Positions 19,883-64,000 of a stretch of DNA of 64,000 nucleotides are shown piece after piece. This stretch comes from a virus (lineage: Duplodnaviria > Caudoviricetes). Every line of letters begins with the position of its first letter. Position 1 is the stretch's first letter. Under the pieces are notes generated by a model. The model worked only from the letters and a program-made list of their open reading frames with translations, searched no databases and was not told the origin of the DNA. The translations under genes and the position numbers were made by a program. The stretch is taken from positions 1,424 through 65,423 of the IMG/VR virus record IMGVR_UViG_3300043499_000197, one strand, 5' to 3'.

Positions 19883-19912
19883 GGGCAGTTCCTTTGGTGA
19901 GGTGAGAAAGTA

Positions 19913-19924
19913 TAAACTGGTTTA
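19913..19924. promoter_or_regulatory. Palindromic operator-like site TAAACTGGTTTA
   Basis: Related copies at 24134, 45749, 45854; adjacent TATACT on - strand. Confidence 0.55.
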
Positions 19925-20290
19925 CTAGTTGGGTCGCGGGTCATGAGCCCCTTTCAAGTGAGTGACTTCACGGGTGACGATCTGCTGGGTGGAAGGGCCG
20001 ACCGCGGCCAGGATCCAGGGGCCGATGTGCAGCAGCGGCACGCCGTCCATCACCAGGATCTCCGAGCCGTCCAGGAACAGCGTGCGGTGCAGGCGCCCGG
20101 TCAGTTGCATTGGGGTCCAGCCGGTGCCGATGCGCATCTGGATCGCCTTGGTGATCTCGTCGTCCACCCACTGGGCGCAGCGCTGGGCGGCCTCGTCGGC
20201 CACCTGCTGGGTGCGCTCCCACTGGGCGCGCAACTCCTCGGGCACGTCGTCGTCCGACAGGTCGGGCATCGGGAAGCGGAGCTTCTTCAT
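19925..20290 (-). CDS. Hypothetical protein
   Basis: MKKLRFP start overlaps helicase stop; coding-like codons. Confidence 0.7.
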   Translation of the reverse strand: MKKLRFPMPDLSDDDVPEELRAQWERTQQVADEAAQRCAQWVDDEITKAIQMRIGTGWTPMQLTGRLHRTLFLDGSEILVMDGVPLLHIGPWILAAVGPSTQQIVTREVTHLKGAHDPRPN

Positions 20291-24109: not shown

Positions 24110-24133
24110 GGGGTGGGTTTCCGGTGGTGTGAG

Positions 24134-24162
24134 TAAACTATTTTACCGCGCATCTATGTCAA
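24134..24162 (-). promoter_or_regulatory. Sigma70-like leftward promoter TTGACA-N16-TAGTTT overlapping the palindromic site
   Basis: Minus strand TTGACATAGATGCGCGGTAAAATAGTTTAC upstream of exonuclease. Confidence 0.6.
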
Positions 24163-41775: not shown

Positions 41776-41960
41776 ACCCGGCTCTCCAGGTACTCGACGA
41801 GGTAGCGCGCGTAGTTGGGCACGAACACGTGGCCCTCGAACTCGAAGGTGGCGTCGCGCACGGGACGCGCATCGGCTACCTTCAGCGCGGCCTTGAAGCG
41901 TTCGAGCTTCGGGCGGGTCCAGGTCACGCCGCCCCTGGGGCGGGGGGTGTGGTTGGTCAC
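41772..41960 (-). CDS. Hypothetical protein
   Basis: FEFEGHVFVPNYARYLVEYL; GTGA overlap. Confidence 0.65.
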   Translation of the reverse strand: MTNHTPRPRGGVTWTRPKLERFKAALKVADARPVRDATFEFEGHVFVPNYARYLVEYLESRV

Positions 41961-43176: not shown

Positions 43177-43512
43177 TTATGCGCGCGCAGCGTTCTCTTG
43201 TTCGGCGAACTCGGCCATGCGCTTCTCGGCATCCGCTTCCTGGCCAGCGACCAATGCAGCGTAGCGTTGCGGGTGGAGTTGTTCGGCCAGCAGGTTGGCC
43301 AGCGTGGCCATGTTGCAGGCGCTGGTGTTCTCCAGCTTCTCGAAGGCACGCTCGCCCTCGGCACTCCAGTCGGGGAACATGCGCTCCAATGCGAGGCGCT
43401 GTTCGAGTTGTTCCATGTGGTCGGACACGCACTTGCGGACAGCGATCTCGGCCAGCTTGCGTGGGGTGAGGTCGTTCAAGGCTTCGAAGGCCTGGATGGG
43501 GGTGATCTGCAT
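43177..43512 (-). CDS. Hypothetical protein
   Basis: 111-aa ORF, AAGGA SD. Confidence 0.75.
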   Translation of the reverse strand: MQITPIQAFEALNDLTPRKLAEIAVRKCVSDHMEQLEQRLALERMFPDWSAEGERAFEKLENTSACNMATLANLLAEQLHPQRYAALVAGQEADAEKRMAEFAEQENAARA

Positions 43513-43537
43513 GACTATCCTTTAAGTTGCAGTTAGG

Positions 43538-43834
43538 TTAAGCGCGGCGGTTGTCGCGCGGCTGGACATAGGTGCTGAAGTTGGTAGCTTGTTTGCCGGG
43601 TTGTGTCTCCCACTTGTTGGACTTGGCTCTCCATCCGGCCGGGATGACGGTCGAGTTATCAGGCTCGTGTGCGCTGGCTTCGCCTTTACGATCCACTAAC
43701 AAGAAGGTGTGACCCTTCGGAATGCGGTTAGTGTTGCTGTTCATCCATGTTCGGGCTTGCGCCTTAGTGCTGCAAGCGTGGATTTGGTAGACAGACTTGC
43801 CGTTAAAGGCTACGTGCACTTGAGTTAAGGCCAT
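43538..43834 (-). CDS. Hypothetical early protein (98 aa, low GC)
   Basis: AAGGAG SD before ATG 43834 (MALTQVH...). Confidence 0.65.
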   Translation of the reverse strand: MALTQVHVAFNGKSVYQIHACSTKAQARTWMNSNTNRIPKGHTFLLVDRKGEASAHEPDNSTVIPAGWRAKSNKWETQPGKQATNFSTYVQPRDNRRA

Positions 43835-43869
43835 TAAGGGCTCCTTAGTGTAGGGGTTAACCCCCATGA

Positions 43870-44197
43870 TTTCTGACATGAGGGGGGGTTGGTGCCGACA
43901 TTTCCGACTGTTGGCAGAAATCGACACACAGCTTAATGTGGTTGATTTCATTGAAGATTTCACTGTGACAGTTTGTACCTTCCGACATTTCTGACATGTT
44001 TCGAAACTCACTGTCCCCCGTTTCATGACGTTAAGGGCTTAACGTGAGTACACTGACATTAAGCCCTTAGCTAATTAGCGCTTCAGAAAATTCTTATGCG
44101 CGAGGGGTAGGGTTTTATGTAAGAAATCTCAGAAGTGTCAGAAATGTACAGGAAGAACACTTTCTGACATAGGCCGACCGATTTCTGACAGTCAGAA
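43870..44197. repeat. Iteron-like TTTC(T/C)GACAT repeats in an AT-rich region (candidate origin)
   Basis: Copies at 43870, 43901, 43980, 43988, 44161, 44182 and inverted at 44136, 44191. Confidence 0.7.
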
Positions 44198-44297
44198 GTC
44201 ACTAAGGCTTAATAGGCCCCAAATGTCGCCCAAACCGTAGATGGCCGACACTTCAAGCCCAAAATGGCCGTTAATATAAATCGTCCCGTTCCTTTTT

Positions 44298-44415
44298 CGC
44301 ACTAAGCGGCCCTTAAGACCGCTTAGTTAGCTAACTTAAGGCCCTTAACAGCTAGTTAAGCGGCCTTAAGTTAGCTAAGCCGCACTAAGCGGCCTAGTTA
44401 AGAGGCTAATTAGCC
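44298..44415. repeat. TTAA/CTAAG-rich palindrome cluster
   Basis: 17-bp perfect IR 44327-44343/44362-44378; flanking 14-bp direct repeat CGCACTAAGCGGCC at 44298 and 44381. Confidence 0.9.
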
Positions 44416-44892
44416 TTCGATGGTGCGTGCTGCGTCGTCCTTAGCAGTGTCGTCCTTGCCGATCAGCGCGCTAAGTTCAGCCACCATGCTGATAAGAACC
44501 ATCTTCTTGCCCTTAGGCGCCTTGCCGTTAGACACAGCCAGTGCATGCAGGCCTTCGATGATCATGCAGAACGAGCGAGCCGTAGCCTTAGACGGGCGGC
44601 GCGCTTGTCCGAGCATCATGTCGATAACTAAGCGCTGTGCCTTAGGCACGATGCCTTCGTTAAGGACCTCGCGCATCAGGTTGCCGTAGTTGCCGTCCAT
44701 GCACTGCTTAGCGAAGATTTCCATCATGAGGCGCTGACGTTCGTCCTTCGATGCGAAGCTGATCGACATCTCGAAGCAGCGCGGGTTGCCCTTCTTGTCG
44801 AAGGTGACCATGTGGCTGGTGGCGTTGCTCAGTGCGTCGGACACGGTGATCTCGCCGACGATGGAGGGTGCAGTGTTGGTGATCGAGTACAT
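44410..44892 (-). CDS. First leftward (early) gene, hypothetical protein
   Basis: 160-aa ORF, CCTCACTAAGGA SD motif. Confidence 0.8.
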   Translation of the reverse strand: MYSITNTAPSIVGEITVSDALSNATSHMVTFDKKGNPRCFEMSISFASKDERQRLMMEIFAKQCMDGNYGNLMREVLNEGIVPKAQRLVIDMMLGQARRPSKATARSFCMIIEGLHALAVSNGKAPKGKKMVLISMVAELSALIGKDDTAKDDAARTIEG

Positions 44893-44899
44893 AAAAATT

Positions 44900-45640
44900 C
44901 CTTAGTGAGGTGAAACGTTGTAGCTATGCGGTCGCATGCCAGTTAACCCATAGTTCATAACGCTATGGGCTAACGGACGTGTTGTCCTTCGGGTTGGTCT
45001 AGATACTTTGCGCGCCTCTCTAACTACTGGCGCTAACCGATACTTTGCGCGCCTACGTAAACCGGGCGCCGCTGTTTGTTCATCAGGTGACATCGCTACC
45101 TTTAGTCCTGCTTTCGGACGCCGCGGCTTGGCCACGGTAGTGCTAAGTAATCGTCGCCCACGCTCCGCATACGTTCCCCGTGCGACTCCGTGCCTTCTCA
45201 TGCTGGCCTAGTTCGCTGTCCAATACCGTATGGTTCTGCGTGCTTTGATTCCGCTCACGAGCTATAAGCTTTCCTCGGCCTTTCAACCGGATTCCCCGTT
45301 AGGGCGCCTATGTCGCAATTCGCACATGCACATCAGTCAATCACGCGCTGATGGCGCGGACACGCTAACCCCTGCACTCGCAACCCCGGTTTGTTTCCCG
45401 TCCGGGCGCCGCGCCATGCTTGGCCGCAACTGTGTCGTTCGCATGGCCTCGATACTCGCGTCTTGCGACGCGCGGATTCCATGCTCTGAATTTTTAATGA
45501 CCGCGACGTTTCGCTGCATCGCTAGGCTTAGGCGCGGGACGGAAGGCCTTTACAGGGGAATCCGTTGGCGCGCCGGCCGGTGCCGATGCTGCTAGAGCTT
45601 GGAGGCTCAGCCTGTAGGGACTGCGATCAGCCCCTACACA
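44900..45640 (-). ncRNA. Candidate large structured non-coding RNA or leader
   Basis: No ORF with coding bias; nested long-range stems; GCAA tetraloop and two G-U pairs favour - strand. Confidence 0.5.
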
Positions 45641-45748
45641 CTAGGCGACGGGTCTACCTGCCCCCCTGGGGGCTGGGGGGCGAGGGAGGGGAGGGGTGGC
45701 CAGCCCTTATGTCCTGCACACAGTCCCCAGATCCTCTTCAGCACCTAG

Positions 45749-45778
45749 TAAACTACTTTACACACGGCAATCGTGCAA
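45749..45778 (-). promoter_or_regulatory. Leftward sigma70-like promoter TTGCAC-N17-TAGTTT with palindromic site
   Basis: Minus strand TTGCACGATTGCCGTGTGTAAAGTAGTTTACT. Confidence 0.6.
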
Positions 45779-45853
45779 GCACGCTTCCGTGGCGCGCTCA
45801 GCGCCATAGCAAACGTGACGGCCCCAGCACCCAGCCCACACAGCCACACTAAG

Positions 45854-45884
45854 TAAACTAGTTTATATTGGGCCCCCCGTGCAA
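45854..45884 (-). promoter_or_regulatory. Leftward sigma70-like promoter TTGCAC-N18-TAGTTT with perfect palindrome TAAACTAGTTTA
   Basis: Minus strand TTGCACGGGGGGCCCAATATAAACTAGTTTACT. Confidence 0.6.
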
Positions 45885-45980
45885 ACCCTGCCTTTTATGC
45901 ACGTCACACTGCGCTATTAGAAAAGCGTGCCTGATAATCGCGTGCATCCCCGCGCCCGCTCACATCACCAGGAGATGCCC

Positions 45981-46124
45981 ATGGCCAGCGACGTCCCGCC
46001 CTTCGACAAGAAGAAGAAACCCGCCAAGGGGAAGATGCCGTTCCCGCCGGCCTCCAAGGCGGGAGGCCCGGCCCCCGACAAGGGCGGCAAGAAGCCCAAC
46101 CCGTTTGCCAAGAAAGGAGCCTGA
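45981..46124 (+). CDS. Small Lys/Pro-rich basic protein
   Basis: AGGAG SD; MASDVPPFDKKKK... Confidence 0.7.
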   Translation: MASDVPPFDKKKKPAKGKMPFPPASKAGGPAPDKGGKKPNPFAKKGA

Positions 46125-46126
46125 CC

Positions 46127-46291
46127 ATGGCCCGCAAATCAGGAACCCTCTCGATCCAGAAGAAGCCTTCCGTCCCTTCGGGCGGGCGCATGAACCCGAC
46201 CATGGACCAGAAGACGATGCCCAAGGTGCCGTTGCCGGCCAAGGGCAAGAGCAGCAAGGAATCGAGCACCCGGATGCCCGGGCCGAAGTGA
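46127..46291 (+). CDS. Small basic protein (54 aa)
   Basis: AAGGAG SD; MARKSGTLSIQKKP...; below ORF-track cutoff. Confidence 0.65.
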   Translation: MARKSGTLSIQKKPSVPSGGRMNPTMDQKTMPKVPLPAKGKSSKESSTRMPGPK

Positions 46292-46332
46292 CGCTGCGCT
46301 AACGCGCGCGAAGCGCGCTCCCCGGATCGCAG

Positions 46333-47079
46333 ATGTCCGACTACGGCCTCGTCCTCCCCGACCATGACCTGACCGCGGCCGACTTCAAGGAGTTGGCGCG
46401 CCGTGTCGGGCGTGCCGCCTTCATGCCGCTGTTCCTGCGCTACTACGAGCGGGTGGTGACGAGCGAGGCGACGATCGAGGAGCAGCGCCGCGGGCTGGTG
46501 GACATCGCCCGGTGGACGGGTGTCGAGGAAGAGAAGAAGAGCGACCCGAACGCCAACCTGCCGGTTTTCCAGATCATCTTCGGGCAGGCAGGCACCAGCG
46601 CGGCCAGCATCGAGGCGGTGGAGGTCATACAGCCGCCCACCCACGAGCCCTTGCCCACCCCTGACCCACGCGCACCTGACGCGCTATTAGACAGTGCGGC
46701 GGAACTGATTCCAGCGGACATGCTGAAATCGTTTGCTCACGACCTGGAAGAAGTGGCCCGGTCGGCGCAGCCGGCCGGATCACGCATGAAGGAAATAGCC
46801 GATGCCCAACCCCACGCCGCCCCATCCGCCGCTGCAGCACATGCAGACCCTCCCGCGCCTGTCGAACCCGGCCGATCCGCAGATCCACCGCCTGAGCCCG
46901 TTCGATCAGGCCCACCGGATTCCGGGCCACGGCTCGCAGCACACCGAGCGGGAATTGACTACGAGCGACCCCAAGGCTTACAACTTGCCCCCGCCGCCCC
47001 TGCCGAAACACGCGACGAGCCGGTAAGCCCCACCTTCACCCAGGCGCTGGCCGACCTGGACAGCCTGCTGGACATCTAA
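46333..47079 (+). CDS. Probable terminase small subunit
   Basis: Abuts TerL; helical N-terminus, PVFQIIF strand; assignment mainly positional. Confidence 0.55.
   Translation: MSDYGLVLPDHDLTAADFKELARRVGRAAFMPLFLRYYERVVTSEATIEEQRRGLVDIARWTGVEEEKKSDPNANLPVFQIIFGQAGTSAASIEAVEVIQPPTHEPLPTPDPRAPDALLDSAAELIPADMLKSFAHDLEEVARSAQPAGSRMKEIADAQPHAAPSAAAAHADPPAPVEPGRSADPPPEPVRSGPPDSGPRLAAHRAGIDYERPQGLQLAPAAPAETRDEPVSPTFTQALADLDSLLDI
46802..47026 (+). CDS. Nested +1-frame Pro/His-rich protein (74 aa) inside TerS
   Basis: AAGGA SD before ATG; GC3 bias moves to this frame. Confidence 0.5.
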   Translation: MPNPTPPHPPLQHMQTLPRLSNPADPQIHRLSPFDQAHRIPGHGSQHTERELTTSDPKAYNLPPPPLPKHATSR

Positions 47080-63537: not shown

Positions 63538-64000
63538 GCCGCATGGACATGTTCCGCCAGCGCCATCGCAGCGTGCAGCCGCGCGCGGTGGACGACATGG
63601 CCACCATGACGCTGGACGATCCCAAGCGCAGCGACGTGCCTTCGCCGAGCGCGGAGAACTTCGCGATGCGCGTGCGCGAGACGCTGATGGTCTACCTCGG
63701 GCGCCAGGGCGACCCGCTGGACCGCGGCATCACGCTGCGCGACCTGATCGATGCCGGCGTCGTCACCATCGCGCCGGGCTACTCGCTCGGGCCGGGCGGC
63801 GGCGCGATCCCGATCGGGCCGGGCGGGGGCGGCGCGGCCAGCCAGATCAAGCCTGACTTGACGCCACCCCCCACGGTGACGGGGCTGGTCGTGACGCCCG
63901 GCCTGTCCAACATCTTCTTCGAGACCGACCCGCCCACCTTCGCGATGGGGCACGGCTACTTCGTCACCAACATCTACGGCGCGCAGCAGGCCGCGGGCCA
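63534..64000 (+). CDS. Tail tip/central fibre protein, truncated by window end
   Basis: ATGA overlap; GRQGDPLDRGITLRDLID and DLTPPPTV.GL motifs; open to end. Confidence 0.65.
   Translation, partial: MSRMDMFRQRHRSVQPRAVDDMATMTLDDPKRSDVPSPSAENFAMRVRETLMVYLGRQGDPLDRGITLRDLIDAGVVTIAPGYSLGPGGGAIPIGPGGGGAASQIKPDLTPPPTVTGLVVTPGLSNIFFETDPPTFAMGHGYFVTNIYGAQQAAG

Follow-up and report, generated by a model that had tools for sequence, protein, structure and literature searches.

The locus and its surroundings

The window analysed here is a stretch of 64,000 nucleotides (nt), bases 1424-65423 of a 65,423-base virus record in IMG/VR (G000), and our subject is the divergent gap at 44893-45980 between its leftward early genes and its rightward packaging genes. 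The gap is non-coding, shows no excess folding as a whole, and holds motifs that are conserved in sequence, order and strand among related phages. It is neither a stand-alone structured RNA gene nor one large folded RNA. Judged from the conserved motifs, it may well be a non-coding control region that continues into the long untranslated 5' leader of the leftward early/replication operon, with a nut-like antitermination site inside the leader; we hold this reading with moderate confidence.

Between 44892 and about 14690, the minus strand carries early and replication genes, among them those for a family A DNA polymerase and a primase-helicase. The plus strand, from about 45981, carries two small open reading frames (ORFs), a 248-amino-acid (aa) protein, TerL and an SU10-type portal (the latter two recognized by family matches) and, further along, a 3159-aa protein of the DarB-like/LPD23 type. 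The 248-aa protein has no family match and is a possible small terminase subunit, named by position only. No cultured phage has a TerL more than 34% identical to this one, and a DNA search of 44000-46200 against cultured phages gave no match. The phage is an uncultured, GC-rich podophage from soil, with a portal of the SU10 type and a giant DarB-like protein, and is not lambdoid. An N4-type virion RNA polymerase with hairpin promoters was also considered and ruled out, the 3159-aa protein matching DarB-like/LPD23 proteins and no RNA polymerase.

Relatives were collected with a TerL alignment, which gave 46 IMG/VR loci (TerL identity 49-98%), and two more came from another search; they are cited below by handles such as L002, and the sequencing runs that gave further contigs by X3 and the like. 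Motifs were counted in these 48 related loci (370,434 bases), and exact matches to the boxA consensus were sought in 94 loci. TerL and the first leftward protein (160 aa) found few relatives as single queries, two scans of genome contigs found none, and the 160-aa alignment run against viral contigs returned only a relative already known. The features of the locus are as follows.

44410-44892, minus strand: first leftward gene, an ORF for a 160-aa helical protein with 18 homologs
44893-45980, no strand assigned: non-coding divergent control region, with the first leftward gene on one side and the rightward small ORFs, possible terS, TerL and portal on the other
44925-45456, minus strand: lineage-specific leader spacer with two 16-nt direct repeats and a 12-base-pair (bp) hairpin; folding z-score near 0 except at the hairpin
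45457-45472, minus strand: 6-bp hairpin CGCGTC-GCAA-GACGCG with a GCAA (GNRA) loop, a boxB-like candidate, starting 14 nt after the 17-mer of the next line
45487-45503, minus strand: boxA-like element and spacer, a 17-mer reading CGGTCATTAAAAATTCA on this strand; its 11-mer at 45492-45502 fits the boxA consensus at 9 of 11 positions
45613-45638, minus strand: 11-bp hairpin with a GATC-containing loop and one G-U pair on this strand only, from folding and relatives
45658-45700, no strand assigned: G-run tract (plus strand; C-rich in a minus-strand RNA), preceded by CCCTA..TAGG and a GCGTCAACC-like word
45704-45723, no strand assigned: conserved 20-mer CCCTTATGTCCTGCACACAG, its CCTTA core invariant in 10 of 10 aligned units
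45749-45760, no strand assigned: palindrome-like box TAAACTACTTTA, a candidate leftward promoter or operator by its likeness to copies of a 14-nt motif
45854-45865, no strand assigned: perfect palindrome TAAACTAGTTTA, whose plus strand resembles the copy at 19913 read on the minus strand and which may therefore fire rightward

The preliminary description of this DNA had reported a stretch of about 750 nt with no credible ORF, and this is borne out over a gap that is wider (1,088 nt). The spread of GC content between codon positions is 0.02-0.28 over 44900-45900, with no codon-position periodicity, against 0.45-0.55 in the flanking genes, and the ORFs listed within the gap are Arg/Pro-rich frames. 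A long non-coding gap is also kept in L020, L023, L026 and L004 (549, 637, 835 and 802 nt), and in the first three a homolog of the 160-aa protein is encoded at the corresponding position and in the same direction.

The left two thirds of the gap cannot be aligned among relatives, and as a whole it is not alignable with that of L004, with which it shares 7 9-mers (4.4 in shuffles). The left 530 nt of the stretch are a fast-evolving, lineage-specific spacer with a few local hairpins, among them the 12-bp hairpin at 44942-44974; the start codon of the 160-aa gene lies about 50 nt downstream of this hairpin. The 16-nt direct repeat noticed earlier is exact (45002-45017 and 45039-45054) and non-random, no repeated 16-mer occurring in 300 shuffles. 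The 16-mer was found exactly in nine IMG/VR stretches, eight of which share only 16-21 nt with the window, which is chance level (the longest of these matches, in one stretch, is 21 nt at 95% identity).

A boxA-like element kept in place and on one strand

The degenerate 10-mer TCDTTAAMAA (TC[TGA]TTAA[AC]AA) occurs once in the window, where 0.02 matches are expected, and 11 times in 10 of the related loci. All 11 matches lie on the strand opposite to TerL, 788-2731 nt upstream of it, and none lies on the TerL strand. The nine lineages that bear the motif have TerL proteins only 56-66% identical to that of the window, and still keep its order, strand and position. The majority consensus of the copies, read by eye as GCTCTTTAAAAATT, fits the published boxA consensus GYTCTTTAANA, which is gamma-proteobacterial (Baniulyte et al. 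2017, PMC5725501). According to the mutants described in that source, the changes C4T and T6C inactivated boxA; in all copies found here, positions 4 (C) and 6 (T) of the consensus do not vary.

The copies differ in quality. Those of L019 and L059 fit the consensus at 11 of 11 positions and are the only exact matches in the 94 loci, both at this site; those of L023, L027, L028 and L059a fit at 10 of 11. The window's own 11-mer, GGTCATTAAAA (in RNA, GGUCAUUAAAAAUUCA-like), departs from the consensus at positions 2 and 5, a variant also present in L020 although its TerL is only 61% identical. Matches of 9 of 11 occur in the window at chance frequency (20 seen, 18.5 expected), and the case for the window copy therefore rests on its positional homology with the better copies of its relatives. 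Compared by eye with the 17 boxA and spacer letters of the Escherichia coli rrn leader (ugcucuuuaacaauuua; the boxA-spacer oligonucleotide is CACugcucuuuaacaauuua in Table 1 of Prasch et al. 2009, PMC2724277), L019 and L059 match at 15 and 16 positions. In the window, the boxA-like word is followed by an A/U-rich spacer with AUU (...AAAAAUUCA), a trinucleotide that the same paper, where it treats the spacer, links to NusA binding. AUU is found in the window, L004, L019, L020, L026 and L059b, and AUC in L023, L027 and L059a.

A functionless origin has to be weighed at this point. The stretch might be mostly a mosaic spacer between two promoters, with a coincidental resemblance to boxA: its left two thirds are not conserved, the window's own match is not significant alone, and phage intergenic regions are often recombination seams. 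Such a spacer would, however, hardly keep the order, strand and position of the motif in nine lineages so distant in TerL, and the motif is found nowhere else in 370 kilobases (kb) of related loci. We regard this explanation as quite unlikely.

The hairpin that follows the element

The hairpin CGCGTC-GCAA-GACGCG is the one hairpin of the preliminary description's model that recurs in relatives. GNRA-capped hairpins with different stem sequences lie 15-35 nt after the element in four of the nine lineages, against 0.29 in shuffles (P of four or more = 0.0005, 2,000 shuffle sets), the offset window having been chosen post hoc, after seeing the data. In L004 the hairpin reads UGCGUU-GCAA-AGCGCG, two of whose pairs are U-G and form only on the minus strand; L023 has a stem of at least 4 bp with a GUGA loop, and L020 has CCC-GCGA-GGG. 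The three loop-proximal pairs vary by lineage (C-G/U-A/G-C/C-G, U-A/U-G/C-G/C-G and G-C/G-C/G-C/C-G), and hairpins with 3-nt loops stand at the same offset in L026 and L027.

An ordered set of motifs next to the packaging genes

The boxA-like element belongs to a larger pattern. In the right-hand 150-300 nt of the gap, short words are kept in nine lineages and always in the same order: an AT patch; in some lineages, a hairpin with a GATC loop; CCCTA..TAGG with a GCGTCAACC-like word; G runs; the CCTTA 20-mer; and AT-rich palindromic boxes, which differ between lineages. Read as minus-strand RNA, the order is 5' 20-mer, C-rich tract, GGUUGACGC word, small hairpins, boxA and GNRA hairpin. From the element to the first leftward gene, the distance is about 150-600 nt across lineages.

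The GATC-loop hairpin bears on the question of strand. Strains of the L002 type have T>C changes at 45613 and 45615, two of the three sites at which L002 differs over 44925-45700, that keep its pairing only as U-G on the minus strand; both variants also occur in contigs of runs X4, X5 and X20, and one of them in X3. Each of the two terminal hairpins, 44942-44974 and 45613-45638, exists as first described, with one A-C that is G-U on the minus strand. Counting these two built-in positions and the two T>C changes, four of four strand-informative positions favour the minus strand, a weak hint that chance would give about once in 16. In L026 the loop is the same, while two pairs of the stem have changed on both sides; no clear hairpin of this kind stands in L004.

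The C-rich side of the G-run tract, which precedes the boxA-like module, could load Rho. The best 60-nt window on the minus strand here has 33 C and 15 G, and six of the nine lineages have windows with 29 C or more and 16 G or fewer.

The same pattern might instead work at the level of DNA only. The conserved unit (AT patch, GATC hairpin, CCCTA..TAGG with GCGTCAACC, G runs and CCTTA 20-mer) would then serve packaging recognition or cutting (pac, cos or a terminal-repeat boundary), or be an array of protein sites by the terminase genes, the rest being spacer and no RNA function existing. In every case the unit is found immediately upstream of the packaging module and in the same orientation, and its conservation takes the form of short words without covarying helices. 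Moreover, 35 related contigs have an end in the 5 kb upstream of TerL, and in 9 of them this end lies 584-725 nt upstream, where about one would be expected if ends were uniform; several of these 9 start inside the G runs or at the 20-mer, and contigs of runs X3 and X20 stop at 45642 and 45643. The contig starts, however, are spread over about 100 nt and do not share one position, and assembly breaks are known to arise from G runs and from strain divergence, which is sharp to the right of 45701. The two ends of G000 overlap within a structural gene, as in a record assembled as a circle, two relatives classed with terminal repeats have their ends far from TerL, and contig depth shows no consistent doubling (6.55 against 2.8-2.9 in X3, 12.9 against 7.4-7.9 in X4, flat in X5; these values are confounded by strains sharing an identical block). 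A purely DNA-level role would also leave unexplained why the AT patch matches boxA and its spacer letter for letter on one strand. On balance, we consider such a role somewhat unlikely, though a function of the unit at the DNA level, whole or partial, is worth keeping in view.

Several observations concern the contig ends themselves. Contigs with position 1 within about 100 nt of the G-run/CCTTA element are L005, L008, L022, L032, L033, L037, L038, L042, L056 and L058, and they come from different metagenomes; the 20-mer occupies positions 1-19 of L008 and about 25-44 of L005. Such ends could reflect a physical terminus, a repeat boundary, or a weak spot of sequencing or assembly. Tandem short repeats stand upstream of the packaging genes in two contigs, of the CCCCGCTAG type in L005 (100-300) and GGGGGCGCA in L053 (1-80). 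The ends of the G000 record overlap by about 40 residues inside a structural, tail-fibre-like gene (window 63870-64000 against the 1423 bases before the window). They encode the same peptide with one difference, and the record was therefore assembled as a circle and broken in a variable gene.

The stretch is not one large structured RNA

The preliminary description had proposed a single structured non-coding RNA of about 750 nt, of a new class, built from nested long-range helices and acting as a decoy, a scaffold or the like. The stretch is indeed long and truly non-coding, complementary words exist in it, and the wobble positions of its two local hairpins fit the minus strand. All four of the stem pairs that were named are exact reverse complements, but such repeats are equally common in shuffled sequence. 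Against 300 dinucleotide shuffles, perfect inverted repeats of at least 6 nt number 59 (58.9 in shuffles), those of at least 7 nt number 18 (15.4; reached by 91 of the 300 shuffles) and those of at least 9 nt number 2 (1.05; reached by 88). In a sequence of 60% GC, nested complementary words of 6-9 nt over 750 nt arise at chance frequency, a caution for any model of this kind.

Fold energies lead to the same result, both for the whole region and for its core. The whole-region fold has a z of -0.81 on the minus strand, where 4 of 20 shuffles fold as well, and of +0.24 on the plus strand, where 10 of 20 do. The core at 44960-45480, which comprises the nested-stem domain and the supposed multibranch, lies between -1.3 and +0.9 on both strands in 120-nt windows. 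A modest excess on the minus strand appears only at the two ends, 44880-45039 (z -2.3, -2.9), which holds the hairpin 44942-44974, and 45480-45719 (z -3.2 to -1.9), which includes the hairpin 45613-45638.

Comparison with relatives is no more favourable to a large fold. RNAalifold, run on 10 homologous units of the conserved right part, found no shared large structure and no covariation (0 pairs on the minus strand, 4 invariant pairs on the plus strand). The nested-stem domain is unalignable in L004, and gap length ranges over 549-1,088 nt. A relative in a contig of run X4, 89% identical over 45125-45258, has at 45259-45659 (401 nt) a replacement that cannot be aligned at 80%, and rejoins the window at the G-run element.

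The only close homolog that covers the gap, the contig L002, is nearly identical to the window: 44925-45700 differs at 3 of 776 sites (99.6% identity), which might seem to argue for a constrained RNA. The neighbouring 160-aa gene, however, differs at only 2 of 483 sites, synonymous sites included, whereas in TerL 116 of 1,443 sites have changed, 95 of these being third positions of codons. Because the synonymous sites of the neighbouring gene are equally identical, the near-identity of the block reflects recent shared ancestry and not purifying selection on an RNA.

The stretch matches no Rfam family: at the gathering score there are 0 matches in the window and 0 in the loci of 8 relatives, the best sub-threshold match reaching 19.8 bits against a gathering score of 47 (E 0.39) and the others being worse. 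Taken together with the shuffle-level stems and folds, this makes the large-RNA model very unlikely. As for the functions once suggested, a decoy or a scaffold finds no support here, while an antiterminator fits a small part, the boxA-like element with the CGCGTC-GCAA-GACGCG hairpin; this part is of a known class (nut/boxA), not an undescribed one.

Palindromic boxes and the direction of transcription

Counted over both strands, a 14-nt palindrome motif matches 10 times, at five places in the window, where chance predicts 0.27. Four intergenic sites carry TAAACTAGTTTA or a close variant of it (19911-19926, 24132-24147, 45747-45762 and 45852-45867). Two of these copies, at 19913 and 24134, precede minus-strand ATGs by 24-30 nt, and the former is followed by a leader word (TCACCTCAC..AAGGAA) like that preceding the 160-aa gene. 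Judged by these two copies, the one at 45749 may act as a leftward promoter, and leftward transcription of the region, at the head of the early operon, is probable. Two leftward promoters had been proposed just upstream of the stretch. The two 19-nt repeats behind that proposal are real, but they hold a 12-bp palindrome, so their direction is ambiguous, and no sigma-70 site accompanies them; the suggestion that the stretch heads the early transcript is thus kept by analogy with the other palindrome copies, and not by the two promoters as first claimed. Among the runs listed as holding the stretch, none is on record as RNA, and X20, though labelled RNA-Seq, is probably DNA.

Other palindromes occupy the matching place in relatives, TAACACGTTA in L023, L024, L058 and L059, and GTTAAATATYTAAC in L020, L027 and L028. 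The palindromic boxes resemble operators or promoters, particular to each lineage, that a phage regulator would use. As possible sigma-70 promoters, the AT patch, a GATACT repeat and a TTGACG-like word were rejected, no partner hexamer being seen by eye at 16-18 nt.

The first leftward gene and its vicinity

The 160-aa protein has 18 metagenomic homologs with 55-99% identity, 15 of which were aligned with the window protein. It matched nothing in Pfam, PHROGs or a sequence search of PDB. Its AlphaFold2 model is all-helical, with a predicted local distance difference test score (pLDDT) of 70.8, and Foldseek searches of the PDB and BFVD libraries gave nothing at E <= 0.001. Just upstream of its start codon, the 32 nt at 44893-44924 share only 72% identity with L002 (10 differing columns, including 4 gaps, in an alignment of 36), while the surrounding 1.45-kb block is 99.6% identical.

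Beyond this gene lies a second non-coding stretch, 43830-44409 (GC 0.42-0.48), in which six or more repeats of the ATTTCTGACA type occur in both orientations, together with a perfect 17+17-nt palindrome at 44327-44378 flanked by 14-nt direct repeats. Its fold z falls to -7.2 on both strands, which marks these as palindromes of the DNA, and the stretch is a candidate origin of replication or array of operators. Further into the block of minus-strand genes, ARAGORN called a tRNA-SeC (anticodon TCA) on the plus strand at 41847-41937; no Rfam tRNA reaches the gathering score at this site, and the call is probably false.

Comparison with known antitermination systems

The nearest likeness is to nutL and nutR of phage lambda, which serve N-dependent processive antitermination and consist of boxA, a spacer and boxB. 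The likeness lies in the place, a probable untranslated early leader upstream of the first gene, and in the candidate parts, a single-stranded boxA-like word, an A/U spacer with AUU and a short hairpin with a GNRA-type loop. The differences are also clear: the spacer is about 14-25 nt here and 8 nt in lambda, the hairpin is present in only four of nine lineages, and the phage is no lambdoid. The leader would be about 850 nt long here, whereas that of lambda is roughly 220 nt. In phage HK022, the put RNAs of the early leader are protein-independent, cis-acting antiterminators that modify RNA polymerase; put is a two-stem RNA with conserved pairing, and RNAalifold found no conserved pairing of that size here. 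At the level of letters, the boxA word of lambda nut is CGCUCUUA; the window copy fits the consensus GYTCTTTAANA at 9 of 11 positions, a match of chance-frequency quality; the lambda nutL oligonucleotide cgcucuuaaaaauuaa, as given in Table 1 of Prasch et al. (PMC2724277), is close to the L023 copy CACTCTTTAAAAATCC.

The boxA complex of rrn leaders (NusB, NusE, NusA, NusG, SuhB and S4) offers a second comparison. Besides the close match of L019 and L059 in letters, it resembles the present site in the function proposed for it, the shielding of a long untranslated RNA from Rho. In rrn leaders, as their layout is given by Prasch et al. (PMC2724277), the hairpin precedes boxA (boxB, boxA, boxC), whereas it follows here, and the window copy is off the consensus at two positions. 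A third case is boxA in mRNA leaders, as described for E. coli suhB and others in the account of Baniulyte et al. (PMC5725501): a consensus-type boxA lies in the 5' untranslated region, overlapping or near Rho loading sites. At suhB, as that account has it, the Nus complex represses the gene and boxA lies less than 50 nt from the start codon, whereas the element described here lies about 600 nt upstream.

A proposed leader with a nut-like site

We infer transcription of the stretch, Nus-factor binding and antitermination from the conserved motifs and the comparisons above, and the following model would account for them. Transcription would start at the palindromic AT-rich box near 45750 and proceed leftward, with about 850 nt to cover until it reaches the first gene. 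Some 250 nt from its 5' end, this RNA would present the boxA-like element and its AUU spacer, then the GNRA-capped hairpin, in a layout of the lambda nut type. Host NusB and NusE(S10), with NusA and NusG, would load onto RNA polymerase at this site, and the polymerase may then resist Rho-dependent termination over the long untranslated, partly C-rich leader and the operon of about 30 kb.

A number of points weigh against this model, in addition to the chance-level quality of the window's own boxA match and the post hoc choice of the hairpin offset. The GNRA hairpin is missing in five of the nine lineages, and where it occurs its distance from the element exceeds that of lambda. The family of the 160-aa protein lies downstream of the boxA-like element in only four of nine lineages, and the GATC-loop hairpin of L020 is better on the plus strand. 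A sigma-70 scan of 43400-46400 finds no site, so that the start and direction given above are conjectural. No N-like arginine-rich protein was recognized among the first leftward ORFs, whose translations were read without a dedicated search. The boxA of the actual host may differ from the consensus used. Lastly, the motif could instead be a protein-binding or bending site in DNA.

A bolder version of the model would take the whole conserved unit of about 250 nt as a new, N-independent antitermination or Rho-control module of this podophage clade, which we think unlikely; the 160-aa protein might be a new RNA-binding partner of such a module in the lineages that have it.

If the proposed leader with its nut-like site is real, it would add a member to a known class of boxA leaders and not found a new one. 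In that case, uncultured soil podophages of this clade would call on the Nus factors of the host where their early operon begins, as is known chiefly from lambdoid phages and rrn operons. The phage copies could then help to trace the host by sequence, as the boxA of its own rrn operons is expected to match them.

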